DNA of 32,000 nt from Candidatus Saccharimonadota bacterium (GTDB lineage Bacteria > Patescibacteriota > Gracilibacteria > UBA4473), in the NCBI GenBank assembly GCA_963677105.1, contig OY781871.1, positions 540,001-572,000 on the forward strand. Direction: 5' to 3'. The position numbers and the translations under genes were made by a program. The notes beneath the pieces were generated by a model that saw only the letters and a program-made list of their open reading frames with translations, was not told where the DNA came from and searched no databases. Of the stretch, positions 1,894-27,781 are shown piece by piece. Positions within the stretch are counted from its first letter, which is position 1; every line of letters starts with the position of its first letter.

Positions 1894-2424
1894 ATGCGAG
1901 ACTTTCCGCCGATAACGAAAGCGTTGCTTATTATAAATGTGATTATTTTCATCGCGAATCAGTTTGGAGCACTTCCATACACAGTTTCATTTCCAGGAAT
2001 TTATTCCATAGGAACTCTTTTGGCGCACTTTTCTCATGCATCATTGTTTCATTTGGGATCTAATATTATAGGGATTATCATTGTTTCTCCGATGCTTGAG
2101 CAAGACCTAAGAAAGAAGAAATATATTTTGCTTTTGCTCTTTTTGTGGCTTTCACAAGCGGCAGCTATTCCATTTTTAATAAATGCTCCGACATTAGGAT
2201 TCTCGGGGATTTTACTGGGATTGCTGACTTTTTTTGCAATACGGCTTTGGGTTCAAACGCGAAATATGTCGAATTTCACACTTGGAAGAGATTTATTATT
2301 TCTTGTAGGAATTAATGTTGCGCTGCCATTATTCGTTCCACAAATATCATTTATTGGACACGCGCTAGGAGCGTTACTAGGATTGATTGCTGCAACAGCG
2401 TCTCTCATTCCTTGCAGGAAATAA
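1894..2424 (+). CDS. rhomboid-family intramembrane serine protease (176 aa)
   Basis: Polytopic hydrophobic protein with HASLFHLGSN (H..xxH..N), the GFSGILLGL catalytic GxSG motif and the IGHALGALLGL catalytic His helix. Its ATG directly abuts the hisS stop (TAAATG at 1891-1896). Confidence 0.8.
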   Translation: MRDFPPITKALLIINVIIFIANQFGALPYTVSFPGIYSIGTLLAHFSHASLFHLGSNIIGIIIVSPMLEQDLRKKKYILLLLFLWLSQAAAIPFLINAPTLGFSGILLGLLTFFAIRLWVQTRNMSNFTLGRDLLFLVGINVALPLFVPQISFIGHALGALLGLIAATASLIPCRK

Positions 2425-2461
2425 TTTTGTGATTTCGGGAGTCATATATTACAGTTCGTCC

Positions 2462-3214
2462 ATGTTACCAATTTTAATTTCATTGCCACATTGCTCAGAT
2501 CATATTCCATATGATATTCGAGACTCTGTCGCGCTTTCTGATCTTGACTTAAAAAATCATTGTGATCTGTATACTTCGTGGATTTTTGACATTCCTGAAA
2601 CGTTTCAAGTAAAAGCGAGTTTTTCACGGCTCGTTTGTGATCCAAATCGTTCGGTAGATGATATTAAATTTCGCGACCAAAATGATTATGCGGAGTTCAT
2701 TTCCGACAGTATTCCGCTTCATTCTATCGACAAAAAACCAATTTATAAAAATGTTCTTACCGAGGAAGAAGTAGCACGACGAGTGAGAAAATATCATGCG
2801 TTGTATCACTGGCAGCTAGAAATGTATTTACCAATGGTGAAGTTTTTTATTGACGGACACTCTATGTACAATATTGCGCCAGATATTTATCGTAATGCTG
2901 GACAACAGCGACCAGATATTTGTCTTGGGACGCGTGATGGAACGACTTGTAAACCAGAACATGCAGAGTTTTTCAAAACATTTTTTGAAGCATGTGGATA
3001 TCACACAACTATTGATTCTCCTTTCAAGGGAAAATACATTATGGAGCGTTATTGCTCTTCAAATAGAGTTCCGGGGATTCAAGTAGAGTTTAATCAACGA
3101 TTCTACATTGACCCCGAAACACTCGAGCCAAAGTACGATAAAATTGAAGAACTAAATAAACAGATGACAAATTTAACGTTTGCTTTCTGTCAGAAATTTT
3201 TTCCAGAAGAGTGA
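2462..3214 (+). CDS. N-formylglutamate amidohydrolase (FGase, HutG-like) family protein, paralog 1 (250 aa from ATG 2462)
   Basis: Blocks align from memory to Pseudomonas HutG: LPILISLPH, FSRLVCDPNR, KYHALYH, FFIDGHSM, RPDICLGTRDGTTC, DSPFKGKYIMERY, PGIQVEFNQ. The ORF-track start at 2387 overlaps the rhomboid gene. Confidence 0.8.
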   Translation: MLPILISLPHCSDHIPYDIRDSVALSDLDLKNHCDLYTSWIFDIPETFQVKASFSRLVCDPNRSVDDIKFRDQNDYAEFISDSIPLHSIDKKPIYKNVLTEEEVARRVRKYHALYHWQLEMYLPMVKFFIDGHSMYNIAPDIYRNAGQQRPDICLGTRDGTTCKPEHAEFFKTFFEACGYHTTIDSPFKGKYIMERYCSSNRVPGIQVEFNQRFYIDPETLEPKYDKIEELNKQMTNLTFAFCQKFFPEE

Positions 3215-3925
3215 GATTGCGCGTTCTATTTTTTGAGAGACAGCGGTAAGTTGTTCGCCATTTATATTTTCAGCATTCGTAGAAAAAAGTCCGCGTCGAA
3301 CTTCGATTTGAACACCAGGAAGTGTTTTTTTGGAACAAAAATGTGTGAGTAAATGTCCGCCAAGAAAAGGATCATCTATTTGGACAGAAAACCCAAGAGA
3401 CTGAAATATTTCAGAAAACAAGAAGGCAGTTTTTTTATTGCACGTTCGAAAATTATTCGTGGAAAGGACAATGTCTGGTCGTTTACTTTTTGGATCAACT
3501 TCTTCATCCAGCGAAAGGTCTTCCATCGTATGTCCAGCGATAAAAAATTGAATATTTTCGTTTTTAATTATTTGCAAGCACCTTGCATAAAATTCTTTGT
3601 GCTCTTTTTCTCGAGATATTTTTTCAGAATCAGTTAGCGGAGTCATATATATTTCTTTGCCGTATTCTGTTTTTTGGCGAACAATTCCAGCTCGCTTAAA
3701 ATTTTTAGAAAGAGTCCAATCGTTACTTGCTCGATTCAAATCACAAAATAATCGAGAATATTTTGCTGACAAGATGTGAAATTTATCATGCGTGAAAATT
3801 TCTTTACTTCCATAATCCCAATAATACTTTTGTATTTGCTCAGTAGAAAGAGTTAATTGTTCTCGTGTAGCGATTGGCAGACAAGTTTCTCCATGAGGAA
3901 GGGCAATTAAAATGGGAAGCTTCAT
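3173..3925 (-). CDS. N-formylglutamate amidohydrolase (FGase) family protein, paralog 2 (250 aa)
   Basis: Same family blocks: LPILIALPHG, YSRLFCDLNR, FFIAGHTM, RPDIVLSTNNFRTC, DDPFLGGHLLTHF, PGVQIEVRR. Its start overlaps the ATP-grasp stop (ATGA at 3922-3925). Its 3' end overlaps paralog 1 by 42 nt. Confidence 0.8.
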   Translation of the reverse strand: MKLPILIALPHGETCLPIATREQLTLSTEQIQKYYWDYGSKEIFTHDKFHILSAKYSRLFCDLNRASNDWTLSKNFKRAGIVRQKTEYGKEIYMTPLTDSEKISREKEHKEFYARCLQIIKNENIQFFIAGHTMEDLSLDEEVDPKSKRPDIVLSTNNFRTCNKKTAFLFSEIFQSLGFSVQIDDPFLGGHLLTHFCSKKTLPGVQIEVRRGLFSTNAENINGEQLTAVSQKIERAISLFWKKFLTESKR

Positions 3926-5187
3926 TCTTGAAGTCTTATTGAATTACGGATTTCATGCAAAAGTTTTGTCGCATTGTTGAGTGTTTGTTGAAATTCTTTT
4001 CCATACACAAGAAACTTCATAATGAATTTTCCTCCACGAGAAGCTGGTCCGACCATTTCTCCGTTTTTTCGGTTAAGAGTTATATTTTTAATATCATCGC
4101 GATTTTTCAAACATGAAAAATCAATGGAATCGAGTTTCCCTATATTTGGTGAAAATATTTCGACTACCGCCGTATAAACAGGATATTTTTCTGGCAGAGA
4201 AATAGTATCTCCGAGTGCGACCTGAATACATATTTCATTGAGATCGAAGTTTCTTTGAGTTGCGACATCGAACATTTCTCCACGAAATCCTCCTGAACGT
4301 GCTGCGACTTCTACAACAGAACATTCATTTGTTTCTCGCTTAAAAAACACCTCAGTATGACTTCCACAAAAATTCGTTCCTAGCGCATCGAGCGCTTTTT
4401 TCACGGTATTATAAATAATAGATTCCTGTTCAGGAGTGTAGTCGGCAGGCAGAATTCTGATTGGTAAATGATGATCAGAAATTCCTATTTCTTCGGAAGT
4501 TACATATCTACAAATCGGAGTAAAATGATGTTTCCCGTTTACTGTCAGTGCATCGATTGATAATTCTTCTCCAACTAAAAGTTCTTCTAAAAGAAAATGA
4601 GTACGTGGATCAGGAGTAGTAGGAATTTTTTCATGATTAAATAATTGATCATGAAGAGTCGCCATTTCGTTTTGAATTTCTTCTTGAAAGACTCGCAATG
4701 TTTGAGCGAGATCTTCTCGTGATTTCACTTTTGCGACAAACCGGGAATGAACTCCAGAAAGTTGTTTTAAGATCAATGGAAATTTGTGACAGGTCAAAAA
4801 TTCTTCTGCCTTTTCCATACTATCAATTAAAACAAAATCAGCAGCTGGGACTTTCTGTTCCGCAAAAACTTGTTTCATCAAGAACTTATTTCGAAAGTTT
4901 ACAGATTTTTCAAGGGAAATTCCGGGAAGTTTTTTTGCTTCAGCAATTGCTGCCGTGGGAACAATGAAGTCTTCAAAACGTGTTAGGACGGCATCAAATT
5001 CAGACTTCGCTAAAACAGAACGCACCTCTTCCCAATCGAAAATATCATTTACTTTCCATATTTTTGAAAATGAATTTTCATATTCCAACTTAAATTCTCC
5101 TTTATTTATTAATAAAAAGTTTTCGTTATTTTTTGATAAATGTGTTGATTTACCGCGATATCCTACAAATAAAATTCTTTTTTTCAT
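3922..5187 (-). CDS. ATP-grasp domain carboxylate-amine/L-amino-acid-ligase-like enzyme (421 aa from ATG 5187)
   Basis: ATP-grasp layout: NKFLMKQVFAEQKVP, FPLILKQLSGVHSRFVAKVKSREDL, FLLEELLVGEELSIDAL, GSHTEVFF...CSVVEVAARSGG. The ORF-track start at 5205 is a TTG. ATG 5187 (MKKRILFVG) lies 8 nt below an extended -10. Confidence 0.75.
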   Translation of the reverse strand: MKKRILFVGYRGKSTHLSKNNENFLLINKGEFKLEYENSFSKIWKVNDIFDWEEVRSVLAKSEFDAVLTRFEDFIVPTAAIAEAKKLPGISLEKSVNFRNKFLMKQVFAEQKVPAADFVLIDSMEKAEEFLTCHKFPLILKQLSGVHSRFVAKVKSREDLAQTLRVFQEEIQNEMATLHDQLFNHEKIPTTPDPRTHFLLEELLVGEELSIDALTVNGKHHFTPICRYVTSEEIGISDHHLPIRILPADYTPEQESIIYNTVKKALDALGTNFCGSHTEVFFKRETNECSVVEVAARSGGFRGEMFDVATQRNFDLNEICIQVALGDTISLPEKYPVYTAVVEIFSPNIGKLDSIDFSCLKNRDDIKNITLNRKNGEMVGPASRGGKFIMKFLVYGKEFQQTLNNATKLLHEIRNSIRLQE

Positions 5188-5195
5188 CACGCAGT

Positions 5196-5204
5196 ATCTT
5201 AGCA
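5196..5204 (-). promoter_or_regulatory. extended -10 element of the ATP-grasp/FGase operon
   Basis: Minus strand TGcTAAGAT (5204-5196), 8 nt upstream of ATG 5187. No convincing -35. Confidence 0.3.
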
Positions 5205-5373
5205 AAAATAATGAAGAAGTGGGAGTGATTTTTCGTTTTCCAGTGTCACTTGACGGAAATTATTTTTTATTATAAAAAGGGCTTGTATTTTCGTTTATAG
5301 ATTTTAGATAAAATACTTATAACGAATACTCTTTGATAGAACGAGTTAATTTAAGAAAAATAAGGAGGCTGGA

Positions 5374-5652
5374 ATGAAAGCCATTTTAGCGATATTGGTG
5401 ATTGCTGCTTTTTGTTGGTTTGTACTTCAACCACTTGCTGAATCCACGAGATTTAGTAACGAATTAAACGAACTCAACTCTTGTCAGGAATTACTTGATT
5501 GGGCGAAGGAACGACACGATTTTACTGATCCACAAAAGAAAGAGGTCGCGCAAAGATTTTCTGAAATTGTTGAAAAGACGGGGAAAGAGATTGATTTTTT
5601 AAAATTTAAAGAATCGTTTGGTGATATGGGAATAAGGATCAAATTAAAATAA
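5374..5652 (+). CDS. hypothetical small membrane-anchored/secreted protein (92 aa)
   Basis: This is the only gene in the window with a canonical Shine-Dalgarno: AAGGAGG at 5362-5368, 5 nt before the ATG. It has an N-terminal hydrophobic helix (MKAILAILVIAAFCWFVLQPL) and a terminator downstream. I recognise no family. Confidence 0.6.
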   Translation: MKAILAILVIAAFCWFVLQPLAESTRFSNELNELNSCQELLDWAKERHDFTDPQKKEVAQRFSEIVEKTGKEIDFLKFKESFGDMGIRIKLK

Positions 5653-5678
5653 CCAACTCGTAATATCATACCTTTTGG

Positions 5679-5702
5679 GCGGGACGAAAGTTCCGCTTTT
5701 TT
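5679..5702 (+). terminator. rho-independent terminator after the 92-aa ORF
   Basis: GCGGGA-cgaaag-UUCCGC (6 bp including one G.U pair) followed by a T6 run. Confidence 0.5.
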
Positions 5703-5752
5703 AATATTAAAATTTTGGACTTGAGATTTCCTGAAAACTAAGTACAACGTGC

Positions 5753-5809: not shown

Positions 5810-7456
5810 ATGAAATCACTCATCCAACGAATCAATTGGAAAAAGGTATCCATAATTGTCTGCGCAATTATGTTATTGCTCGTCTTAAATCGAGTCTTTA
5901 ATAAACCAGCAGTGAAAGAAACAACAATTTCCGATTCACAAGCAAAACAAGTTTCAATAATCGAATTCGGTCGTTGGTCATCTGACGAACAACGAGAAAT
6001 TACGGGAACAATTCTCTCTGGAACAGATGTGGATGTACGAGCGGAAGTACCAGGAATAATCGAGAAAACATTCGTAAAAATTGGTGACATGGTTGAAGAG
6101 GGGCAAGTTTTGGCTTCTTTTCAACGGAAAAATGATGCGACACAAATTTCATATGAAAATCTGCTTCAGCAATTAGCAGTTGCAAAAATTCAAGCATCAT
6201 CTTCGGTTCAATCTGCAGAGATTGCTTTAAATTCCGCTCAACGTCAATTAGAACAAACAGCGAAAAGCGAAGCTCAAAATTATTCTCGCACATTCGATTT
6301 ACTAAAAACACAGGCTCGAAATGCTGAAAGTGAATTCGTGAATATCCTAGATTGGGCAGATACGCGACTTATGGTTTCTCATTCTGCGCGAGCAAATGCG
6401 GATTACAATGCACAACAAATTGGGAAAAATAATACGATCATGCGACAGAACTTGAAAAATGATTTGGAAGAATTATTGCGAGAACAAAAACGAATTCACC
6501 AAGAAAACCTTCCCGAGGTTATGACAGACGATGAAGTCTTGTTTTTGGCGACAGATCGATTGCAGCTTTTGAAAAAAATACGAACTTTTACTCGATCATT
6601 TAATCTGCTAGTACAAGGAACGCCAGTAACAGGATCTTTTTCTCAGGCAAACAAGACGGCTTATGAAAATGAAGCAACAAGTTTCGTAGCATCTATTGAT
6701 GCAAAGGTTCTTTCTCTTGAGACCCAGATTGAAGCTGCAAAATCAGAACAAGGACGGAATCGCCTTTCTGTTTTAGGCGCAGAAAATTCAGTACAAAACT
6801 TAGAAGCAGGACTTGCTGTGGCGAGAGCGCAAGCAGGATCACAGATCACACAATTGGAAACACAAATTCGTTTGGCACGTAGTAATCAAGAAGATCTTAT
6901 TGTTCGCGCTCCGTTTACGGGGACAGTTGTAGGGAAAACGGTTCTTCCTTTTGATCAGGTGAGAGCAGGAGACATTTTATTTTCTCTTGTTGGGGAAAAA
7001 GTTGCGCCAAAGATAATTGCGACTATTACTCGGAACGAATTAATGCGAATACAAACTTCTCCAGGGAAAGTAGAAGCAGTATTCAAAGACGGGAAAACAG
7101 TACCACTTACAGAGGTTCGTATTAGTGGGAAATTAAACGCCATTACACAGAAATTAGAGGTAGAATTTCCAATTGAAGAACTTCCAAAAGAAACTCTTGT
7201 AGGAGAATTTGTACGAATTCGAGTTCCGCTCAACGGAAAACACAACAACTTACTTCCTATTTCTGCGGTATCTTTTGAACCAGACGGACCAGAAATTCTT
7301 ATATTGGAAAAGGGAGAAGGAAAGAGACAAAAAATTGAGGCGGGAGAAATTATATCAAATGCGATAGAGATTCTTTCGGATCTTCCCGAAGGTTTGCAGG
7401 TGATACGATATCGGAATCGAGCACACGCAGGAGAAAAATTAGAAATTCGTAAATAA
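5810..7456 (+). CDS. efflux RND-type periplasmic adaptor / membrane fusion protein (HlyD family), 548 aa from ATG 5810
   Basis: N-terminal TM anchor (KKVSIIVCAIMLLLVL). Lipoyl-like half-motifs VDVRAEVPGIIEKTFVKIGDMVEEGQVLASF and LIVRAPFTGTVVGKTV flank a coiled-coil of about 250 aa, followed by a C-terminal beta-barrel region. The stop overlaps the RND start (TAATG at 7454-7458). Confidence 0.85.
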   Translation: MKSLIQRINWKKVSIIVCAIMLLLVLNRVFNKPAVKETTISDSQAKQVSIIEFGRWSSDEQREITGTILSGTDVDVRAEVPGIIEKTFVKIGDMVEEGQVLASFQRKNDATQISYENLLQQLAVAKIQASSSVQSAEIALNSAQRQLEQTAKSEAQNYSRTFDLLKTQARNAESEFVNILDWADTRLMVSHSARANADYNAQQIGKNNTIMRQNLKNDLEELLREQKRIHQENLPEVMTDDEVLFLATDRLQLLKKIRTFTRSFNLLVQGTPVTGSFSQANKTAYENEATSFVASIDAKVLSLETQIEAAKSEQGRNRLSVLGAENSVQNLEAGLAVARAQAGSQITQLETQIRLARSNQEDLIVRAPFTGTVVGKTVLPFDQVRAGDILFSLVGEKVAPKIIATITRNELMRIQTSPGKVEAVFKDGKTVPLTEVRISGKLNAITQKLEVEFPIEELPKETLVGEFVRIRVPLNGKHNNLLPISAVSFEPDGPEILILEKGEGKRQKIEAGEIISNAIEILSDLPEGLQVIRYRNRAHAGEKLEIRK

Positions 7457-10641: not shown

Positions 10642-10786
10642 GAAAATTCTTGATTTTCAAAAAAAAGAGACGATAATTCCACTGTCTTATTTATTAACCA
10701 CTAAAGTTACGAATATATTCTTGGGCATCGTTTAGAATTTTTATTCAGTTTAGTAAAAATTCATTTTATTTTTTTATTTTTTAAAA

Positions 10787-10918
10787 ATGTATAGCTCTTG
10801 TGATTGCGGTTGTGACTGCAAAAAATGTAAAGAATGTAAAAAGCCTTATTGTGAATGTGACTGTGAAACGGAGACTACTCCGTTGGTAGGAGAAGAAGAA
10901 CGAGACTTTGAATGGTGA
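10787..10918 (+). CDS. untracked 43-codon ORF: cysteine-rich (9 Cys) metallothionein-like peptide
   Basis: My own translation is MYSSCDCGCDCKKCKECKKPYCECDCETETTPLVGEEERDFEW followed by TGA. A strong terminator starts 13 nt after the stop. There is no SD, but that is the norm in this window. Confidence 0.5.
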   Translation: MYSSCDCGCDCKKCKECKKPYCECDCETETTPLVGEEERDFEW

Positions 10919-10930
10919 TTTAGAAAAAAA

Positions 10931-10955
10931 GCCTTCGTGAAGACGAAGGCTTTTT
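10931..10955. terminator. strong rho-independent (potentially bidirectional) terminator
   Basis: GCCTTCGT-gaag-ACGAAGGC, a perfect 8-bp GC-rich stem, flanked by an A7 run upstream and a T5 run downstream. Confidence 0.7.
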
Positions 10956-10999
10956 AATAAAATCTTTTTAAAGATACTTTATATGATTTTTTCGTATAC

Positions 11000-11036
11000 A
11001 AAAATATTTTCAAACAAAACAAGTTGAAAATATTTT
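11000..11036 (-). terminator. AT-rich hairpin immediately 3' of tRNA-Thr (possible terminator)
   Basis: Inverted repeat AAAAATATTTTCAA (11000-11013) / TTGAAAATATTTT (11024-11036). On the minus strand it follows the tRNA 3' end by 2 nt and is followed by U-rich sequence. Confidence 0.35.
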
Positions 11037-11038
11037 AG

Positions 11039-11114
11039 TGGAGCCGCCTTCGAGAATCGAACTCGAGATCTCGTCCTTACCAAGGACGCGCTCTAGCCAC
11101 TGAGCCAAGGCGGC
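11039..11114 (-). tRNA. tRNA-Thr (anticodon GGU), 76 nt, CCA encoded
   Basis: The reverse complement GCCGCCTTGGCTCAGTGGCTAGAGCGCGTCCTTGGTAAGGACGAGATCTCGAGTTCGATTCTCGAAGGCGGCTCCA folds as a cloverleaf. Acceptor GCCGCCT/AGGCGGC, D stem GCTC/GAGC, anticodon stem CGTCC/GGACG with loop TTGGTAA, T arm TCGAG-TTCGATT-CTCGA. Confidence 0.9.
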
Positions 11115-12294: not shown

Positions 12295-12594
12295 ATGGCA
12301 GATAAAATTTACTGCGGAAACGGAAAAAAGATTACAACACGTTATGGAGACATGATGCGGTTAAGTTTATCTGAAAGCGATCTACAAGCGCTACAAGATA
12401 ATTTAGAAAACGGTTGGGTAAATGTAAAAGTTTGTGAGAGACGAGAACCAAGTCAGAGCGGAATGACTCATTATTTAGAAGTAGACACATGGAAACCAAA
12501 TCAAGATCGAGATGATGCGGCTCCGGCAGCGGCAAAAGCCCCAGCGAAACCAGCTCAGACGGACGAAGTAAGCGCAGAGGATTTACCGTTTTAG
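12295..12594 (+). CDS. hypothetical 99-aa protein with an SSB-like tail (Pro/Ala linker plus acidic EDLPF C-terminus)
   Basis: Clean ORF with a strong terminator downstream. Globular N-terminal region of about 65 aa (KIYCGNGKKITTRYGDMMRLSLS...GWVNVKVCERR...THYLEVDTWKP). This is followed by DRDDAAPAAAKAPAKPAQTDEVSAEDLPF. Confidence 0.6.
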   Translation: MADKIYCGNGKKITTRYGDMMRLSLSESDLQALQDNLENGWVNVKVCERREPSQSGMTHYLEVDTWKPNQDRDDAAPAAAKAPAKPAQTDEVSAEDLPF

Positions 12595-14398: not shown

Positions 14399-17300
14399 TT
14401 AAAGACTCGTTAACTCCTTTTGTAATGTATCTAATTTGGTCTCAGCATCAGTGAGTTGTTGTTTCGTTTGGTTCACTAAATGCTCAGGAGCTTTATCGAT
14501 ATATGACTTATTAGTTAAACGTCCCTTCAGTCCACTAATTGATTTCTCGAGAGAAGCGATTTCAGCTTCTAAGCGTTTCTTTTCTGCCGTTGCATCAAAA
14601 GGAACTTCCACGAAAATCTCCATTCCGTTGATCAGTACCATTGCTGAACGTTCCGGCTTGGACGCCTTTTCTGTAATTTCAACATCGGACAGATTCGCCA
14701 ACACCTTCATCACCTCAACTGTTTTGTCCAAAGAATCCGCATTCTTACCTGCTGAAATTTTAACTGAAATCTTATCCTTCGGATTCAATTTCTTCTCCGC
14801 TCGAACCTTTCGGATTTCTGTCACAATTTCTTGCATGAGTGTAAAAATTCTTTTTGATTCAGTGTCTTTAAATTTTAAATCGGGGAAATTTTGTTCGATT
14901 AAAAATGAATTTTTTGGGTTTAATTCACTCCATAAGTTTTCTGTAATAAATGGAACAAGTGGATGTGCTAATTTTAGAATTTCCAGAAATACGCTATATA
15001 AAAATTTTGGATTTCTATCTATCTTTTGAGTCTCCAAAAACCAACTACAAAATTCATCCCACACGAAATGATAGATCTCATCTCCAGCGGAAGAAATTTC
15101 ATATTTTTCTAGTTTTTGCGAAACACTTGTAGAAACTTCGGAAAATCTATGTAGAAGCCATTTTTCTGAAAGAGAAGTAGGATTCTTTAATATTTTTTCA
15201 ACATCAAATTCAGAATCAACGTCTTCCAATTGCATTTGTACAAATCTTCCGGCATTCCACATTTTATTTACAAAGTTTCGGTATCCAGACACTTTCGCTT
15301 TTCCAAGTGGAATTGGATTTCCAGGAGTTGCTCCGATTACAAGAGAAAGACGAACAGCGTCCGCTCCCACTTCTTCAATTATTTCGAGCGGATCAATTCC
15401 ATTTCCTTTCGATTTCGACATTTTTTGTCCATTTTCATCACACACCAATCCATGCAAATACACCGTATGAAATGGATATTTTCCTGTTGCATATCGTCCG
15501 AACATAATCATTCGAGCCACCCAAAAGAAGATAATATCATGTCCCGTTTCGAGCACATCTGTTGGATAAAATTTCTCAAAATCAGGCGTTTTGTCAGGCC
15601 AACCAAGCGTTGAAAATGGCCACAATGCAGAGCTAAACCATGTATCGAGAGTATCTTTGTCTTGTTGTAAACCTTCTCCAACAGGATCAGCTAAAACCGT
15701 TAATGCACGAATTTCCCCCTTTTCCCATTTCCACTCAGAACGGAATCGCACAAATTTTTCTTCATCTTCACTTCGGCTAAAATGAAACAAGGCAGCGGTG
15801 AAATTTTTGTGTCCAATCACGAGAACATCGTCTTCTTTTTTTAATCGTTCAATTACGTTTTGAGCTCGCCGAGAAATATCAATTAAGTCCTCGTCTTCTG
15901 TTTTATCAAATTGAATTTCAAAAGGGCCTTCGCGATGCAAATTTGCTTTTCCAGCTAACTCTGAACTCGTGAATTCTGCCAACTCTGGCCACACCTCTAC
16001 AGGAACATTTAATTCGGCAGCAACGATTTCAGCGGTTTGATGTCCGCGTTTTAAATTAGAACAAATTATTTTCTTAATCCCTTTCTTTCGAATATTTTCA
16101 GCTATTTTGCGAGCATCTTGCAAACCATTATCCGTAAGAGGATAATCTCCCCCAAGAATTTTTTTTGCGTTCGCTTCACTTTCCCCGTGTCGAGCAAAGA
16201 GAATATTTTTTTCCACGGGCAGATGAATATTTTCATTTTTATCGTACCAAACGGGGATTCTGTGTCCCCACCAAATTTGTCGTGAAATACACCAATCTCT
16301 TAGATTATCAATCCATTGAAAATAGACCTTTTCAAAGCGCTGCGGAATAATTTTTATATGATTTTCACGAACCGCTTCTTGCATCTGTTTTTTGAGCGTT
16401 GTTTTTTTTCCTGTAAATTCGTCGATGAATTCTTTTTCCACAGAAATAAACCACTGAGGAGAAAGCATTGGTTCTACGATTGTTCCAGAACGATAGCATT
16501 TTGGAACACGATTTGGATGTGGTCGTTTTTCAAACAATAATCCCTTTTCTTCCAACAATTCTCCAGCTCGTTTTCGGGCTTCTTGAACAGGCATTCCGGC
16601 ACACGGTCCTGCAATATCGGTCATCGTTCCAGCAAAATCAATTTTCTGGATAAGTGGTAAATCTCGACGTTGTGCTAATTCAAAATCATCTGGAGAATGA
16701 GAAGCGGAAATAGTCATTGCTCCTGTTCCAAACGCTGGATCAATAATTTCATCAGCAATTACCCAAAATTTTCGCGGTCCCGCATATGTTTCTGCTGTGA
16801 ATTCTTGTCCGACAAGAGCTTCTCCAGGAACAACTTCTTGGATATTAAAATCTTTTCGTAATTCTGTGTGTGCGTCGTAGTATTTTTTTGTTACAATACA
16901 CTCTTTTCCTGTTGCATTTATAGCGCGTACATATTCAGCAGTTGGATGTACTACTACAGGAGAATCTGCACATTTTGTTTCAGTTCGAACAGTTCCAATT
17001 AAAAATGGACCACACCAAAACTCATAAAAATCTGCTATATTGTCGTCCCATTCTACTTCGTCATCAGCAAGTACAGATTGTGCGCCAACGGACCAATTTA
17101 TCATTCGATGACCACGAACAATAAGTCCGTCTTCATAGAGTTTTTTAAATACCCAATTTACCGCAAAGTTTCTTTCAGAATCAAATGTATAGGCTTCTCG
17201 AGACCAATCGAGATGTGCGCCCATTTTTTTTATTTGATGAGTAATTCGATCATGTTTTTCTCCTGCAAATTTTCTACATTCAGATAAAAAATCTTCTCGA

Positions 17301-17608
17301 TCCATTTCTTCTCGCGTCTTCAATCCCAAATGTTTTAATACGACATTTTCGGTTGCAATTGCTGCATGGTCTGTTCCTGGTAACCAAAGCGTTTCGTGTC
17401 CCGTCATTTTTTTATAACGGATCAAAATATCTTCTACAGCTAGCATTGCAGCGTGACCAAGATGTAATTGCCCAGTTACATTCGGTGGAGGAAGAGGAAT
17501 TGTGTACGGCTTTTTGTTGGAAGAAACATCAGCGGTCATCACATCTGTTTTTTCCCATTTTGCATAAATTGCATCTTCTGAGCCGTTATGATCATAATTT
17601 TTTTGCAT
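14399..17608 (-). CDS. valS: valine--tRNA ligase carrying an internal histidine-phosphatase domain (1069 aa from ATG 17608)
   Basis: ValRS blocks: PNVTGQLHLGH (HIGH), TVRTET (TTRPET-like, CP1), FGTGAMTISASHSPDDF, WCISRQIWWGHRIPVWY, DTLDTWFSSALWPFSTLGWP, KMSKS, and a C-terminal coiled coil. With the start at ATG 17608, MQKNYDHNGSEDAIYAKWEK aligns residue-for-residue with the E. coli ValRS N-terminus as I remember it. The track start at 17623 is a GTG. Confidence 0.9.
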   Translation of the reverse strand: MQKNYDHNGSEDAIYAKWEKTDVMTADVSSNKKPYTIPLPPPNVTGQLHLGHAAMLAVEDILIRYKKMTGHETLWLPGTDHAAIATENVVLKHLGLKTREEMDREDFLSECRKFAGEKHDRITHQIKKMGAHLDWSREAYTFDSERNFAVNWVFKKLYEDGLIVRGHRMINWSVGAQSVLADDEVEWDDNIADFYEFWCGPFLIGTVRTETKCADSPVVVHPTAEYVRAINATGKECIVTKKYYDAHTELRKDFNIQEVVPGEALVGQEFTAETYAGPRKFWVIADEIIDPAFGTGAMTISASHSPDDFELAQRRDLPLIQKIDFAGTMTDIAGPCAGMPVQEARKRAGELLEEKGLLFEKRPHPNRVPKCYRSGTIVEPMLSPQWFISVEKEFIDEFTGKKTTLKKQMQEAVRENHIKIIPQRFEKVYFQWIDNLRDWCISRQIWWGHRIPVWYDKNENIHLPVEKNILFARHGESEANAKKILGGDYPLTDNGLQDARKIAENIRKKGIKKIICSNLKRGHQTAEIVAAELNVPVEVWPELAEFTSSELAGKANLHREGPFEIQFDKTEDEDLIDISRRAQNVIERLKKEDDVLVIGHKNFTAALFHFSRSEDEEKFVRFRSEWKWEKGEIRALTVLADPVGEGLQQDKDTLDTWFSSALWPFSTLGWPDKTPDFEKFYPTDVLETGHDIIFFWVARMIMFGRYATGKYPFHTVYLHGLVCDENGQKMSKSKGNGIDPLEIIEEVGADAVRLSLVIGATPGNPIPLGKAKVSGYRNFVNKMWNAGRFVQMQLEDVDSEFDVEKILKNPTSLSEKWLLHRFSEVSTSVSQKLEKYEISSAGDEIYHFVWDEFCSWFLETQKIDRNPKFLYSVFLEILKLAHPLVPFITENLWSELNPKNSFLIEQNFPDLKFKDTESKRIFTLMQEIVTEIRKVRAEKKLNPKDKISVKISAGKNADSLDKTVEVMKVLANLSDVEITEKASKPERSAMVLINGMEIFVEVPFDATAEKKRLEAEIASLEKSISGLKGRLTNKSYIDKAPEHLVNQTKQQLTDAETKLDTLQKELTSL
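15671..16204 (-). other. in-frame insertion of about 178 aa encoding a histidine-phosphatase (PGAM-branch) domain within valS
   Basis: ILFARHGESEAN (RHG motif), LTDNGLQDARKIA, IICSNLKRGHQTAEIV, PELAEFTSSELAGK, DVLVIGHKNFTAALF. Flanked by WWGHRIPVWYDKNENIHLPVEKN and LQQDKDTLDTWFSS. Confidence 0.7.
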
Positions 17609-17634
17609 TTCAGCGTGGTACACAAATCACGCAA

Positions 17635-18850: not shown

Positions 18851-19780
18851 ATGCAACACGAAAAGCTCGTTATCATCGGTTCAGGTCCAGCAGGTTTCAC
18901 GGCGGCAATTTATGCTGCTCGAGCAGACTTAAACCCACTAGTTCTTGAAGGAAAGCAGCCAGGGGGACAGCTCATGGGAACGACAGAAATCGAGAATTGG
19001 CCAGGTGCGACAGAAGGATTGACTGGGCCGAAACTCATGAGCGATCTTCGAGAGCAAGCGAAGAAATTTGGTGCGAGAACAGAATTTAAATATGTAGAGA
19101 GAGTAGATTTCAGTAATTCAGACAAGTTACATTTATGGATTGGTGAGGAAGAAATTACAGCGGATTCTGTTATTATCGCCACGGGAGCAAGTGCTCGTTG
19201 GTTAAATTTAGGGAAAGGAGAAGAGCGGTATTGGGGAAAGGGATATTCTGCGTGTGCAACGTGTGATGGAGCATTCTTTCGAGGGAAAACAGTTGCCGTT
19301 GTTGGCGGTGGAGATTCTGCGTGTGAAGAGGCGATGTTTTTAACGAAATTTGCTGAAAAAGTATATCAACTTGTACGACGAGATGAAATGAGAGCAAGCA
19401 AGCCAATGCAACAACGAGTGCTTGATAATCCAAAGATTGAAGTAATTTGGAACACTGCACCAAGCAATTTAAAAGGAGAAAAAATTCTTGAAAGTGTTGA
19501 GCTTACGGACACGCAAACACAAGAAAAACAAGACTTAAAAATAGATGGGTTATTTGTCGCGATTGGACACACGCCAAACACAGGATTCTTGGGAGAAAGT
19601 GTAGAATTGGATCGAGGATTTATAAAAGTTACAGATCATACAAAAACAAACGTAAAAAGTGTTTTTGTGGCAGGAGATGTTGCAGATCCACATTATCAAC
19701 AAGCAGTTGTTGCTGCAGGAAGTGGATGTAAAGCGGCGCTTGACGCAGAAGATTATTTGTCTCGTCTTTCTCGATACTGA
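18851..19780 (+). CDS. trxB: thioredoxin-disulfide reductase (309 aa)
   Basis: VIIGSGPAGFTAAIYAAR (FAD), redox-active CATCDG, VVGGGDSACEEA (NADPH), GHTPNT, VFVAGDVAD. Confidence 0.9.
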   Translation: MQHEKLVIIGSGPAGFTAAIYAARADLNPLVLEGKQPGGQLMGTTEIENWPGATEGLTGPKLMSDLREQAKKFGARTEFKYVERVDFSNSDKLHLWIGEEEITADSVIIATGASARWLNLGKGEERYWGKGYSACATCDGAFFRGKTVAVVGGGDSACEEAMFLTKFAEKVYQLVRRDEMRASKPMQQRVLDNPKIEVIWNTAPSNLKGEKILESVELTDTQTQEKQDLKIDGLFVAIGHTPNTGFLGESVELDRGFIKVTDHTKTNVKSVFVAGDVADPHYQQAVVAAGSGCKAALDAEDYLSRLSRY

Positions 19781-21420: not shown

Positions 21421-22551
21421 ATGAAATTCGATTTTTCTCAGATCGGTGTCCCGCAGGAAGATTTATTTGGTACAAAAGAAGAATTGGAAAGTATGCTGGA
21501 AAGTTTTCATAAAAAGAAACAAGGATTTTTGAAATCACTGAACGATGACCTGACAGAAGTCCTTCGCTTTGCGGAGGACAATCGAGATAAATACGAAAAA
21601 ATTGTGGTATTAGGAATTGGAGGAAGTGCGCTTGGAGCGAGAATGATCGCGGATTATTTCGATAACGAAAAGTTGCTTGTGCTTGACACATTGGATCCAC
21701 ATGCTGTTGAAAAAATATTAAAAAGTATCCCATTGGCAAAGACGCTTTGGATTGTTGTTTCGAAGTCCGGAACAACACTTGAAACAATGACTTTGCGTGA
21801 TATGCTCAAACCAGGAATTCCTCAAGGGAATTGGGTTATTATTTCTGAAAAAGATAGTGAATTGTGGAAATGGTCGCAGGAAATAAATTGTCCAGCATTT
21901 GAGATGCCGAAAAGTGTAGGAGGAAGATTTTCAGTGCTTACAACAATTGGAATGATTCCAGCAGCATTAGCGGGATTACCAGTGGAAAAAATAATTTCTG
22001 GAGCAAAAAAAATGAGTCAACATTCTTTAAGCGAGAATGTTGATGAAAATTATGCATGGCAATTAGCAAGCGTCATTGAAACATTTGGAAGAGAAAAAAT
22101 AGTTCATTGGGCGTATTGCTCAGCGTTGAAAACGTTTGGAGATTGGTGGACACAATTGGTAGCAGAATCTTTGGGAAAAAATGATACAGGAGTTACTCCA
22201 ATTGCAGCAATTGGACCGACAGATCAACATTCATTATTACAACTTGTAACAGAGGGAGATGATAATTTTTTCAATATTTTTGTGCGAGATGCTTCGATTG
22301 AGAGATCTCCTTTGGGGAAAATAATGAACGTAGAACTTCGTGCAACAGCACAATCGCTTTCAGAACTCGGTCGTCCGAGTTGTATTCTCGATATTAAAAA
22401 TCGAAACGCGAGCACATTGGGACAACTTATTATTTTATGGGAAATGACAACAGCGTTTCTTGGAGAGTTGCGCGGAATTAACGCATTTAATCAACCAGGA
22501 GTTGATCGTGGGAAAGCTTTGACGCAAGAGTTTTTAGCAGAAAAAGAATGA
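21421..22551 (+). CDS. pgi: glucose-6-phosphate isomerase, short type (376 aa from ATG 21421)
   Basis: PGI/SIS signatures: VVLGIGGSALG, VSKSGTTLET, VGGRFSVLT, PTDQHSLLQL. Confidence 0.8.
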   Translation: MKFDFSQIGVPQEDLFGTKEELESMLESFHKKKQGFLKSLNDDLTEVLRFAEDNRDKYEKIVVLGIGGSALGARMIADYFDNEKLLVLDTLDPHAVEKILKSIPLAKTLWIVVSKSGTTLETMTLRDMLKPGIPQGNWVIISEKDSELWKWSQEINCPAFEMPKSVGGRFSVLTTIGMIPAALAGLPVEKIISGAKKMSQHSLSENVDENYAWQLASVIETFGREKIVHWAYCSALKTFGDWWTQLVAESLGKNDTGVTPIAAIGPTDQHSLLQLVTEGDDNFFNIFVRDASIERSPLGKIMNVELRATAQSLSELGRPSCILDIKNRNASTLGQLIILWEMTTAFLGELRGINAFNQPGVDRGKALTQEFLAEKE

Positions 22552-23738: not shown

Positions 23739-23813
23739 TCCCGAGTAGCTCAGGGGTAGAGCAGTTGGCTGTTAACCAACTTGTCGTCGGTTCAAATCCG
23801 ACCTCGGGAGCCA
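23739..23813 (+). tRNA. tRNA-Asn (anticodon GUU), 75 nt, CCA encoded
   Basis: TCCCGAGTAGCTCAGGGGTAGAGCAGTTGGCTGTTAACCAACTTGTCGTCGGTTCAAATCCGACCTCGGGAGCCA folds as a cloverleaf. Acceptor TCCCGAG/CTCGGGA, D stem GCTC/GAGC, anticodon stem GTTGG/CCAAC with loop CTGTTAA, T arm GTCGG-TTCAAAT-CCGAC. Confidence 0.9.
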
Positions 23814-24227: not shown

Positions 24228-26741
24228 TCACTCAGATTTCTTTTTTGTTTCGACGCGCTTCTTTCCCATTGAAGGTTTCTCTTTTTCTTCGTTTTTCTCT
24301 TTGGTATCTTTCTTTCGTTTATCATTTTCTGGACGTGTCCAGCGAGTTATTTTTTCTTCTACAACAGATCGCGGTTTTGCATATCGTTGGCGAGAAAAAT
24401 TTCGAATCTTTTTCATGCGTTCTTCCGGAGATTCGTCGCACTTAATTTTTGGTGGAGGAAGAGTATCTCCAGAGAAAACTTCACTCGTTACTCCATCGAC
24501 CATGATGCGATTATATACTTTATATTTTGGAAGACTTGCTAGGTTTACAGGTAAAACGCGATCTTCATCAAACTGTTCGGATAATATTTTTGCGTCATCA
24601 ATCCCCACTTGAAAAGAAATTAATGATCCGACATTTCCAAATACAGCAGCACAAACTTCTTCTGACATCTGCGCAATATACTGATTTGCCATTGTAAGAT
24701 TGAGCTTATATTTACGTGCTTCGGACAAAATTGTCGCAAAAGAATCAGTGGCAAAGTTTTGGAACTCATCCACATAAAGATAAAAATCTTTTCGTTGTTC
24801 TATTGGAATATCAGCACGACTCATCGCATCAAGTTGGAATTTTGTAATCAAAAGAGATCCAAGCATTGCAGAATTATCTTCTCCGAGTTTTCCCTTTGAA
24901 AGATTCACAATTATTATTTTTCCAGAATCCATTGCAAAACGAATGTCGAGAGTGGATTTTGGTTGACCAACAATATTTCGGATCACTGGCGTAGAGAGGA
25001 ATTGCCCAACCTTATTTTGTATTGGACCAACAGCTTCTGCTAATTTTTGTGGAGCGAGAGCACTAAATTCAGTTTCCCAGAAACTTCGGACCATTGGGTC
25101 TTCTACATAATGCAGAATCTTTTGGCGATAACTTTTATCAACCAGCATTCTTGTGATTCCTAACATCGTAGTATCGGGAGCTTCCACGAGTGCCAAAACA
25201 GTATTTCGTAAAAAGTGCTCTAATCGTGGTCCCCAAGAATCAATATTTAATTTTTTAATCACACCGATGAGTCCAGACGCAACAAGACCTCGTTGTTCTG
25301 GATTTTTTCCTTCCAATAAATTAAAAGCGAGTGGAAACTCTCGATCCGCCGGATCAAAAAGAATCACATCATTCGTTCGATGTTTGGGAACAAATTGCAT
25401 AACGGCTTCAGCCAAGTCTCCATGAGGATCAATTACAGCGACACCTTTCCCAGCTTCAATATCTGAAAAAATCATATTTTCCATAATGGTCGATTTTCCC
25501 ATTCCTGTTTTCCCAATCACATATACATGACGACGACGATCATCTGGACGAATTCCGTATTCGTCCCGTTGTAATCGGAAATTTGTTTTTCCAATAAGAG
25601 TAATGTCAGCCTCTCCTCTTCCCGGTAAATTTGCTGGTGGTTCAAGTTTTGGGGCATTTACCCATTGAATTCGTGCCGTAGAGACGCTTATCGTTGGCAA
25701 ATGGAACATGGTAGCCAATTCTTCTTGAGACAAGATAAATGGAGAATCAAGACGTCTTGCGACGATATTACGAAAAGTATGAGAATCTTTCCCCTTTTGA
25801 AGGGTTCGTATGTCAAAGTAGTTCAATTGTGGTTGTGAAAATTGTTGGAAGGTTCCAGCGATTTCTCGAAGTTTTGCTTCAGCGTGTAACGCATCTTCAT
25901 CATCGTGGATATATGCAGCACGAATATTTACACAGAATGCCTGGCGTGAAACTTTATCATAAGAAGCTCCATATACAGTTTCTCGATCGTGTCTTCCCGA
26001 AGAAGTTCGTTCGTCTACTTCTCCTTCGGTTTCTTCTGAATTATCGCGAGAAACTATGGAAGAGTGTGGGCGATTTTTTCCCCAAAGGAAAAATAAGTGA
26101 ATAAGAAAGAATAATGGGCTGCGCAATATGCGAGTAGATTTATTTGGTGAAATTCGAAGCCATTGATATAATTTTCGGAACCATTTCCATTGCCATACTC
26201 CGGTACGGAAAAAACGTTTGAGCGTTTTTTCAGCGACTTCATTCCATTTTTTATCAACCGGGGCAATAACCCATTGTAATACAGCCGTATCAGTTCGTGA
26301 ATGAAGACTTGAGATAGCAGAAGTGATTGCACCAAGAGGATCTTCAAATGTTCGAGCAGAGGTATCTTCGAATTGTGCGTAACGTTTAAATGGGAAAACC
26401 CATGGTTCACTAGGTTCTAATGATGTTGAGATAACTTTTTTATTTGCAATTAATTTGTTTGTGAAAAAATTACAAACAGTTTCTATCTCAACCGAAGGAT
26501 ATTGTGCAAAAATTTGAGAAGAAATAAGCGTTCGTAAATGTGCTGGAACGGAGACATAAAAATGTATCATTCCACACATGTTCACAATTTCAAAACTTAT
26601 CGTTTCTTGTTCGTTATTTTTCATAGATCGCAAAATCAATCCATGTAAACTTGCCAGGATTTGCTCAAACGCAACTGGTCCTTTTTCGTTTAATTTAGGG
26701 ACGGAGAGGCGAAGCACAGTGCGAGAATTCTTTTTCTTCAT
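24228..26741 (-). CDS. VirD4/TraD-like (AAA_10 / type IV coupling-protein-like) P-loop NTPase with a large uncharacterised N-terminal domain (837 aa from ATG 26741)
   Basis: Walker A HVYVIGKTGMGKST, then AVIDPHGDLAE. Walker B FYLYVDEFQNF. SEARKYKLNLTMANQ. The N-terminal region of about 400 aa has no motif I recognise apart from a hydrophobic stretch (LFFLIHLFFLW). Lys-rich C-terminal tail. The track start at 26747 is a GTG. Confidence 0.75.
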   Translation of the reverse strand: MKKKNSRTVLRLSVPKLNEKGPVAFEQILASLHGLILRSMKNNEQETISFEIVNMCGMIHFYVSVPAHLRTLISSQIFAQYPSVEIETVCNFFTNKLIANKKVISTSLEPSEPWVFPFKRYAQFEDTSARTFEDPLGAITSAISSLHSRTDTAVLQWVIAPVDKKWNEVAEKTLKRFFRTGVWQWKWFRKLYQWLRISPNKSTRILRSPLFFLIHLFFLWGKNRPHSSIVSRDNSEETEGEVDERTSSGRHDRETVYGASYDKVSRQAFCVNIRAAYIHDDEDALHAEAKLREIAGTFQQFSQPQLNYFDIRTLQKGKDSHTFRNIVARRLDSPFILSQEELATMFHLPTISVSTARIQWVNAPKLEPPANLPGRGEADITLIGKTNFRLQRDEYGIRPDDRRRHVYVIGKTGMGKSTIMENMIFSDIEAGKGVAVIDPHGDLAEAVMQFVPKHRTNDVILFDPADREFPLAFNLLEGKNPEQRGLVASGLIGVIKKLNIDSWGPRLEHFLRNTVLALVEAPDTTMLGITRMLVDKSYRQKILHYVEDPMVRSFWETEFSALAPQKLAEAVGPIQNKVGQFLSTPVIRNIVGQPKSTLDIRFAMDSGKIIIVNLSKGKLGEDNSAMLGSLLITKFQLDAMSRADIPIEQRKDFYLYVDEFQNFATDSFATILSEARKYKLNLTMANQYIAQMSEEVCAAVFGNVGSLISFQVGIDDAKILSEQFDEDRVLPVNLASLPKYKVYNRIMVDGVTSEVFSGDTLPPPKIKCDESPEERMKKIRNFSRQRYAKPRSVVEEKITRWTRPENDKRKKDTKEKNEEKEKPSMGKKRVETKKKSE

Positions 26742-26770
26742 ATTCACGGAAAATTGTACGTATTTTTAGG

Positions 26771-26833: not shown

Positions 26834-27781
26834 TTATCCACAACTTGCGTCAGAGTTTGCGCCAGTTCCTTCCCAACCAAATCCAGGAGCAGGAGCTTCA
26901 GCAGAAAGTTCTGCGTCACATTCTTCTGGTTTTTCTTCGAATGCAGAACAAATTACGGCTAACAATCCAGCAGAATCACGTCCTGACGGAATTTTTGTTC
27001 CATTAATCACCAATGAAGGAGATCCTTGTACTCCGAATTCTTGGTTTTCAGCGTCATAAATCATGAATTTTGGAAATCGTCCGTTGAGCCATCCTTCTTT
27101 GTCTTCAAGATTTGCCATAATACTGAATTCTGCATCAGCAGCTTCTGTACATGTCGTAAGGACTGATCGATCGATTTCAGTTTCAGCCAGACATGTTTCT
27201 CCAGCTTCGTCTCCACCATCTGTTCCAAGAAAACATTCTAAGTACGGAATAAGTTTTTCGTTTTGGTCTTTTGCGATACAGTATTCGTTCAACTGTTCTT
27301 TTATTTCTTTTTCTCCGTGCATTGCGTAGTTTACGAACTTCAAGTTGAAATCAATAGTGTCTTTCAATTGTTTTACAACCGGAATCATTCCTTTTTCCAT
27401 TTGAGTTCCAAATGGGCAGTGACTCATAATAAAAAGATCCACAACAGGTTTTTCTGTTTTTGTTATCTCAGGAACGGCAGGAGGAGCTGCAACAGCACCT
27501 TTTTCTTCTGTCATTTTGTCGATTTCCATCACGCTTGGGAAGAAAATTTCTCCATCTCCAGACATGTATGAAGTAATTTCTTTTCCTTGTGCATCTACAA
27601 GAACCTTAAAGAGACCATTTTCAATAGTCACTTCTTTTACAGTTGCAGTTGTTCCCGGAGCCATCAAAACAGTATTAATAAAGTTAGACGCTCGTTCTTT
27701 TGCGGCGTCTTCTGTCATTTGTGTACATCCTGCGAGGAATACTGCGCTGATCGCAAGTGCCACTCCAATAAATTTTTTCAT
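26834..27781 (-). CDS. lipoprotein with a thioredoxin-fold (DsbA/GILT-like) domain (315 aa)
   Basis: Signal peptide plus lipobox: MKKFIGVALAISAVFLAG|C. Thioredoxin-fold hallmarks: VVDLFIMSHCPFGTQ ... GVQGSPSLVINGTKI. Several additional Cys in the C-terminal half. Confidence 0.7.
   Translation of the reverse strand: MKKFIGVALAISAVFLAGCTQMTEDAAKERASNFINTVLMAPGTTATVKEVTIENGLFKVLVDAQGKEITSYMSGDGEIFFPSVMEIDKMTEEKGAVAAPPAVPEITKTEKPVVDLFIMSHCPFGTQMEKGMIPVVKQLKDTIDFNLKFVNYAMHGEKEIKEQLNEYCIAKDQNEKLIPYLECFLGTDGGDEAGETCLAETEIDRSVLTTCTEAADAEFSIMANLEDKEGWLNGRFPKFMIYDAENQEFGVQGSPSLVINGTKIPSGRDSAGLLAVICSAFEEKPEECDAELSAEAPAPGFGWEGTGANSDASCG

Follow-up and report, generated by a model that had tools for sequence, protein, structure and literature searches.

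In a 32,000-nucleotide stretch of a Candidatus Saccharimonadota genome (contig OY781871.1, positions 540,001 to 572,000; hereafter the window), we find a small open reading frame (ORF) at 10787-10918 that encodes a peptide with nine cysteines among its 43 residues and lies downstream from the genes of an RND efflux pump. Comparison with related genomes strongly supports the ORF as a translated protein-coding gene under purifying selection. The best explanation of its product, judged by composition only and held with a probability of about one half, is a cytoplasmic peptide that would carry a single metal-thiolate cluster in the manner of a metallothionein. The gene and the elements that appear to belong to it are as follows.

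10650-10677, + strand: promoter-like element, TTGATT (10650-10655) and GATAAT (10672-10677) with a 16-nt spacer, from a consensus scan
10684-10786, + strand: putative 5′ leader of ~100 nt, A+T-rich, from alignments of the ORF-bearing loci
10787-10918, + strand: small protein-coding gene of 43 codons plus TGA, supported by orthologues and codon-position bias
10926-10955, both strands (the hairpin looks bidirectional): intrinsic terminator hairpin, from its folding free energy (ΔG) and z-score

The ATG at 10787 opens a frame of 43 codons that ends at the TGA at 10916-10918, and its product, MYSSCDCGCDCKKCKECKKPYCECDCETETTPLVGEEERDFEW, is exactly the translation given in an earlier, sequence-only reading of the window. 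Cysteines stand at residues 5, 7, 9, 11, 14, 17, 22, 24, and 26, which matches the spacing claimed in that reading (CxCxCxC-x2-C-x2-C-x4-CxCxC, nine Cys in 22 residues). Cys makes up 21% of the peptide (9/43) and 41% of its head (9/22). Residues 5-26 form a head rich in Cys, residues 27-35 an acidic linker that varies, and the C-terminal E-E-R-x-F-x-W is invariant. There are 12 Asp/Glu and six Lys/Arg residues; in the head, Lys and Asp/Glu are interleaved among the Cys, and a hydrophobic core is absent. The peptide has no His, and its four aromatic residues (Y2, Y21, F41, and W43) are all invariant. Neither a signal peptide nor a hydrophobic segment is present in the sequence.

The length of the ORF is not significant by itself: 15% of 5000 dinucleotide-preserving shuffles of the gap 10642-11038 give an ATG-initiated ORF of at least 43 amino acids. 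None of these shuffles gives an ORF with at least nine Cys, and among the ATG-initiated ORFs of at least 25 amino acids in the whole window, this one is the most Cys-rich. Its G+C content is coding-like and that of the flanks is not (39.5% vs. 21.5%). The sequence-only reading had called 10642-11038 the largest gap of the window, which does not hold since 5206-5752 is longer, though that interval contains a 92-amino-acid ORF. We rejected a tandem-repeat origin of the CxC run: there is one imperfect 21-nt in-frame duplication within the ORF (76% identity, 45 nt apart) and no microsatellite. A Shine-Dalgarno sequence is absent before the ORF (start context ttttaaaaATG), which is normal here because none of the window's genes has one; A/T-rich tracts ahead of the ATG are the rule.

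Because protein databases gave no relatives of the peptide, we compared the DNA flanking orthologues of the window pump at 75-80% identity. The ORF is found in four lineages in all, between the pump stop codon and tRNA-Thr in each. The pump proteins of the three other carriers are 76-79% identical to that of the window. Two further loci, L250 and L256, repeat L249 and L255 in truncated form and were not counted as separate lineages.

Window, 10787-10918, + strand: peptide MYSSCDCGCDCKKCKECKKPYCECDCETETTPLVGEEERDFEW, stop TGA
L248, 6332-6457: peptide MYSTCDCGCDCKKCKECRKPYCECECDLDTSNPEEERDFEW, stop TAG
L255, 5936-6061: peptide identical to that of L248, stop TAG
L249, 5279-5407: peptide MYSSCDCGGDCKKCKGCQKPYCECECEFDASKQDDEEREFDW, stop TAA

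The peptides are 43, 41, and 42 residues long, with indels that are in frame and restricted to the linker, and the stop falls at one aligned codon in all four lineages, whether as TGA, TAG, or TAA. Twenty-six of the 43 alignment columns are invariant, including eight Cys, a K-P-Y turn, and the C-terminal E-E-R-x-F-x-W; all nine Cys occur in most copies. Over the 35 alignable codons, differences at codon positions 1/2/3 number 2/1/9, 2/1/12, and 2/2/15, an excess at position 3 with binomial P values from 4e-3 to 6e-5. The proportions of nonsynonymous and synonymous sites that differ are 0.05-0.09 (pN) and 0.52-0.73 (pS), the latter saturated at the deeper divergences, giving a pN/pS of 0.10-0.14 and a Jukes-Cantor-corrected dN/dS of 0.04-0.08. 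For the same pairs the pump gene has a pN/pS of 0.11-0.23. The sequence-only reading had proposed a small-ORF comparison, to be decided by frame-breaking indels or lost Cys codons in homologous regions; the frame, eight of the nine Cys columns, and the synonymous bias are kept in the three other lineages, and the ORF stands.

One pair of carriers differs from this pattern of divergence. The small ORFs of L248 and L255 are identical at 124 of 126 nt, both changes being synonymous, whereas their pumps have diverged until synonymous sites are near saturation (pS 0.62).

Small-gene module, L248 6184-6500 vs. L255 5787-6104: nucleotide identity 98% in the ORF and 92% in the leader, against 80% in the adjacent pump gene

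This near-identity can be read in two ways: the two lineages exchanged the cassette recently, or the cassette is under an additional nucleotide-level constraint.

TGA is read as glycine in some Gracilibacteria. We rejected this code for the window: several long genes in tightly packed order stop at TGA there, one case being an ATGA overlap at 22548, and the orthologues of the small gene have TAG or TAA at the aligned stop position. TGA is thus a stop codon here. The best named relatives of the window pump are in Candidatus Gracilibacteria (~54% identity). A scan of genome contigs with the pump gave only distant relatives, and the closest pump match is a fragment, P0023 (87%). The L255 contig, JAGYLK010000036, is part of the metagenome-assembled genome M50B91 from the meromictic Lake Shunet, which is assigned to Patescibacteria, Gracilibacteria, UBA4473, and has translation table 11, a size of 0.89 Mb, and 40.9% G+C (PMC8382752). 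We place the carriers in Gracilibacteria, probably in the GTDB order UBA4473; they use the standard genetic code.

Around the ORF, the putative parts of a transcription unit can be recognized. The promoter-like element starts 9 nt past the pump stop codon. All four ORF-bearing loci keep its −35 and −10 hexamers and the spacing between them unchanged, and all six ORF-lacking loci are without it; the element would act as the promoter of the small gene. The leader contains two invariant blocks, GTCTTATTT (10684-10692) and GGCATCGTT (10724-10732). No conserved RNA structure or riboswitch was found in it, and Rfam gave no real match for the leader region, the sub-threshold matches all being due to the terminator hairpin.

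That hairpin begins 7 nt after the ORF and has a stem of 13 pairs (10926-10938 with 10943-10955) closed by a GAAG loop, with an A-run before it and a U-run after it. The sequence-only reading had described an 8-bp GC-rich terminator at 10931-10955; the hairpin is indeed there, but the full stem is 13 bp and the GC-rich part is the core inside it. A simple terminator scan missed it because the U-run lies inside the stem. The folding free energy is −18.8 kcal/mol on the + strand (z-score −6.1) and −16.9 kcal/mol on the − strand; since the hairpin folds nearly as well on the minus strand, it could also terminate the convergent tRNA-Thr(GGT) at 11039-11114, the next feature past the module. Equivalent hairpins of different sequence stand 3′ of the ORF in L248, L255, and L249 (ΔG −18 to −21.5), and the stems differ between lineages with paired changes that preserve them. 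Promoter-like element, leader, ORF, and terminator together thus appear to be a stand-alone unit, although, there being no terminator between pump and small gene, read-through from the pump operon is also possible.

Six syntenic lineages lack the module (L003-5, L006-7, L251, L252-3, L254, and L257), and in these the promoter, leader, and ORF are all missing together. The gap between pump and tRNA is then 106 bp in L003 and 171 bp in L006, and the order of tRNA and dehydratase genes downstream is unchanged. A neighbor-joining tree of the pump, itself poorly resolved, does not place the carriers in one clade. This, with the joint absence of the parts, indicates that the small gene forms a self-contained ~300-bp unit with a history of repeated loss or gain.

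Three further observations concern the same loci. Partial duplicates of the tRNA-Thr 3′ end (ggagccgcc..tcga) occur beside tRNA-Thr in L252 (~6250-6275) and L254 (~6260-6285), where they border additional DNA: ~230 bp in L252 and, in L254, a gene for an MFS transporter. These duplicates suggest a hot spot of integration at tRNA-Thr, possibly relevant to the small gene's patchy distribution. A different conserved element, cctcttcaaatcaaaacacc...taggaattttgatttgg, follows the pump in three ORF-lacking loci (L006 9187-9357, L251 6187-6351, and L254 6136-6260). A TetR-family regulator gene lies upstream of the gene for the membrane fusion protein of the pump in L251, L252, L254, and L257, all four of which are ORF-lacking loci; none was seen in the ORF-bearing loci, with the upstream flank of L249 too short to tell. 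This association is not significant, given about ten lineages and no correction for phylogeny.

The peptide agrees in several respects with what is expected of a metallothionein. Such proteins are below ~10 kDa and Cys-rich, with CxC, CxxC, or CC motifs, few or no aromatic residues, no His, and multi-metal thiolate clusters; CxC and CxxC motifs with Lys beside the Cys are typical, and the rule of few aromatics and no His is relaxed in bacterial members. At 41-43 residues the peptide falls within the size limit, and its Cys content (21% overall, with eight Cys invariant in four lineages) and motifs are those of the class. Having no signal peptide, it would stay in the reducing cytoplasm. The head, with its eight invariant Cys and no hydrophobic core, would become ordered only around metal ions, in one metal-thiolate cluster. 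A single M(II)3S9 or Cu(I)4-6 cluster would accommodate nine Cys, and since the Cys count equals that of the nine-Cys β-domain of vertebrate metallothionein, each peptide would by analogy bind ~3 Zn/Cd or 4-6 Cu(I). The peptide might then buffer or sequester a thiophilic metal in the cytoplasm, and, more speculatively, the acidic tail E-E-R-x-F-x-W-COOH might dock on a partner protein or tune metal release. Every step here, from Cys-rich composition to metal binding and from binding to buffering, is one that we infer.

In composition the peptide resembles the vertebrate β-domain and fungal copper-thioneins such as that of Neurospora crassa, which likewise have ~22-30 residues with seven to nine Cys in CxC and CxxC motifs. 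They share with it the interleaved Lys (CKKCKEC in the peptide, CKCKEC in mammals) and the lack of a hydrophobic core. There is no detectable homology to these vertebrate and fungal proteins, and the peptide differs from them in its denser CxCxCxC run, its acidic tail of ~17 residues ending in F-x-W, its four aromatic residues, and its bacterial (Patescibacteria) origin.

Bacterial precedents exist in SmtA, which binds Zn, in MymT, and in the Pseudomonas metallothioneins (PMC7387436, PMC3841717). In Mycobacterium tuberculosis, the Cu(I) metallothionein MymT can bind as many as six Cu(I) ions (PMC3841717); it is, like our peptide, a very small, Cys-rich bacterial product believed to be cytoplasmic. 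The two share no sequence similarity, and no bacterial relative came up among 1.84 billion representative proteins; moreover, MymT uses Cys and His ligands and belongs to a copper-responsive regulon, whereas the peptide locus shows no metal regulator or regulon. A Pseudomonas metallothionein forms a Zn3Cys9His cluster and has a disordered C-terminal tail (PMC7387436); the window peptide matches its nine Cys and its tail. With SmtA/BmtA (PF02069) there is less in common, the peptide having no match to the model, no His, and none of the family's zinc-finger-like fold elements, and its locus no divergent gene for an SmtB-type repressor. The source of one carrier, L255, in a stratified meromictic lake (PMC8382752) also counts in favor of a metal-thiolate peptide.

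A number of results weigh against the metallothionein interpretation. Pfam gave no family for three variants of the peptide at E-values up to 10, metallothionein models included; NCBIfam, with its own metallothionein models, gave no match either, and neither did PDB sequences or a PDB fold search with the single-sequence model. Pairwise BLASTP gave matches at the level of composition only, with an E-value of 1.2 for human MT2A and, for a single comparison over 16 residues of Cys, Gly, and Ser, 0.01 for the Neurospora metallothionein; both reference sequences were entered by hand. The window ORFs that we scanned include no gene for a metal sensor, metal pump, or metallochaperone, and by model scores the neighboring RND pump does not belong to the heavy-metal type. 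In one lineage the third Cys is replaced by Gly. The comparison covers four lineages only, and its statistics rest on ~35 codons. Finally, the non-Cys residues of head and tail are conserved like those of an average protein, and an invariant aromatic tail is unusual for a metallothionein. Conservation of the tail and of the non-Cys positions points to a role more specific than that of a metal sponge.

A word-indexed protein database gave no match to the single peptide or to the alignment, and an exhaustive phmmer search of 1.84 billion representative proteins returned a sole hit, an unrelated 1773-residue repeat protein (E = 8e-4). PHROGs and PADLOC yielded no usable match, and no hit came from tblastn searches of phages and plasmids or from viral contigs scanned with a specific pattern. 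A looser DNA pattern of the Cys spacing, run on metagenome and viral contigs, is no test of absence, as the matches listed were all TGC/TGT trinucleotide repeats. A literature search found no paper with the motif strings or linking metallothioneins to this bacterial group. By these comparisons the peptide forms a new family, outside Pfam, NCBIfam, PHROGs, PADLOC, and PDB sequences and folds; if metal binding holds, the family would be of the metallothionein kind. It is missing from protein databases because gene callers skip the ORF. At 6345-6563 of L248, a public 72-residue call in another frame overlaps the real ORF and runs antisense into tRNA-Thr; this call is a spurious frame that masks the real small ORF.

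The neighboring pump gives the metal reading no help. Its permease scores 466 bits with the multidrug model RND_permease_2 (HAE1-type) and 359 bits with RND_permease_1, against 300 bits with the CusA/CzcA model TIGR00914, all three below the curated cut-offs. The higher multidrug score speaks against membership of the HME (CzcA/CusA) clade, a point that the sequence-only reading had raised for checking. The metal-handling tie between peptide and pump that it suggested is not supported, in view of the multidrug-type scores, the small gene's own promoter-like element, and the six lineages that keep the pump without the peptide.

We also considered, and rejected, a membrane peptide of the AcrZ type. 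Like the small proteins of that type, it is encoded by a gene of ~40-50 codons beside an RND transporter gene. AcrZ, however, is a single hydrophobic transmembrane helix, whereas the window peptide is highly charged with no hydrophobic stretch; its gene has a promoter-like element of its own, and relatives that retain the pump can dispense with it. Upstream of the pump operon, two genes of the N-formylglutamate-amidohydrolase family and an ATP-grasp (RimK-like) gene lie at 2387-5205, between it and a rhomboid gene. In L248 and L255 the rhomboid gene stands immediately before the pump operon, so this block looks like an insertion specific to the window lineage.

Among the alternatives to a metal-thiolate peptide, the one that survives best, possible but rather unlikely in our estimation, is a structural zinc microprotein with two knuckle- or ribbon-like Zn(Cys)4 sites, whose acidic F-x-W tail would plug into a partner as a regulator, inhibitor, or adaptor. 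It is kept alive by the aromatic and acidic C-terminus, which a sponge model leaves unexplained: E37, E38, R39, F41, and W43 are invariant behind a variable linker, the pattern of a short C-terminal docking motif. The eight invariant Cys would make two sets of four, C11/C14 and C14/C17 have CxxC spacing, and many non-Cys residues of the head are invariant as well (D6, G8, D10, K12, K13, K15, K19, P20, Y21, and E23). A single-sequence AlphaFold model (mean predicted local distance difference test score, pLDDT, of 70) forms a β-hairpin of residues 14-18 and 21-24 around the invariant K-P-Y turn, but it is of low confidence, with a predicted template modeling score (pTM) of 0.31. The CxCxCxC run is far denser than in ribbons or knuckles, whose ligand pairs sit at least 10 residues apart. 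Neither Pfam nor NCBIfam gave a zinc-finger family and the PDB no fold, and no candidate partner is co-conserved, the constant neighbors being the pump, the tRNA, and a sugar dehydratase.

A more elaborate version of the metallothionein-like interpretation, which we regard as unlikely, would combine the thiolate head and the F-x-W docking tail in a two-part family acting as a targeted metal donor, acceptor, or inhibitor for one specific partner rather than as a sponge, carried on a mobile, self-contained 300-bp cassette at a tRNA-Thr hot spot. If true, the Candidate Phyla Radiation would have its first metallothionein-like family, and mobility of the cassette would explain both the patchy distribution and the near-identity of L248 and L255 beside a strongly diverged pump.

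It is improbable that the peptide is the precursor of a ribosomally synthesized and post-translationally modified peptide (RiPP), for example with ranthipeptide-like thioethers from Cys to Asp/Glu, made by an enzyme encoded elsewhere in the genome. Radical-SAM enzymes crosslink pairs of Cys and acidic residues in ranthipeptides and QhpC, and the alternating Cys and Asp/Glu of the head (CDC, CECDCE) resemble such pairs; the small size and the variable segment would also suit a precursor. The sequence-only reading had judged a RiPP less likely, and we agree: among the window ORFs scanned against Pfam there is no radical-SAM, YcaO, LanM-type, DUF692, or peptidase-exporter protein, nor any maturase among the Pfam families recorded for the flank genes of L248, L249, and L255. 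The sole ATP-grasp gene (3922-5205) is absent from those three loci. No SCIFF or other NCBIfam precursor model matches, the Cys block begins at residue 5 and so leaves no N-terminal leader, and genomes of ~0.9-1 Mb offer little room for a pathway.

There is also little to recommend a redox-active or iron-sulfur peptide, in which CxxCxxC...C would bind an Fe-S cluster or the thiols would serve as a sacrificial redox buffer; we consider it hardly probable. The run C11-x2-C14-x2-C17-x4-C22 comes near the ferredoxin-type CxxCxxCxxxC, but the ferredoxin motif has x3 and then Pro, not x4, and requires a larger surrounding fold, and Pfam gave no ferredoxin or Fe-S family match. The window does contain a thioredoxin-reductase-like gene (18851-19780) and a thioredoxin-like gene (26834-27781), both 8-16 kb from the small ORF.

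Weakest, largely refuted, and to us very improbable is a regulatory or noncoding element (a Cys-tRNA-sensing leader ORF that controls the terminator, a small RNA, or a chance ORF): the terminator 7 nt past the ORF, the unremarkable ORF length, the 10-mer AAAAAGCCTT (10838-10847), a copy of the terminator's 5′ arm that could base-pair with the 3′ arm, and a module that outconserves the synonymous sites of the pump between L248 and L255, which could mean constraint at the RNA level, all favor it, but the + strand has no target downstream (a convergent tRNA comes next, in an arrangement shared by the relatives without the module), the antiterminator-like pairing of 10-11 nt is lost in L248, L249, and L255, neither a conserved RNA structure nor an Rfam hit was found, and the conservation of non-Cys residues and C-terminal tail as protein, with position-3-biased substitutions, argues that the ORF is not a mere stalling track or RNA. 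The polycysteine leader ORFs of mycobacteria, which are cysteine-responsive attenuators (bioRxiv 10.1101/834739), are likewise short, unannotated, and full of Cys codons. They lie upstream of the operon they regulate, and their amino acid sequence is not the functional product, whereas the window ORF has nothing downstream to regulate and a protein sequence that is itself under purifying selection.

Three other genes of the window deserve mention. A 99-residue gene at 12295-12594 (+ strand), between a dTDP-glucose-dehydratase-like gene and radA, is highly conserved in all relatives; its invariant C-terminus, EVSAEDLPF, resembles the acidic tip of single-strand DNA-binding proteins (SSBs). It matches one phage SSB family weakly (E = 0.008), and its counterpart in relatives has no recorded Pfam family. 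The valyl-tRNA synthetase (14399-17623, − strand) has a His_Phos_1 domain (residues 474-618) inserted in its catalytic domain, an insertion also recorded for L003 and L004. At 24228-26747 (− strand), beside tRNA-Asn (23739-23813), an 839-residue VirD4/TrwB/HerA-type protein (type IV coupling protein) is encoded, perhaps as a component of an integrated element or of the machinery for DNA uptake that such bacteria commonly have.

The small gene shows how a sequence under clear purifying selection can be absent from collections of 5.8 and 1.84 billion protein sequences, with gene callers as the only cause, and indicates that the small-protein content of reduced, uncultured bacteria is still undercounted. 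If it binds metal, the peptide would represent a new metallothionein-type family without sequence relation to SmtA or MymT and would open a way to study how organisms with ~1-Mb genomes handle metals.

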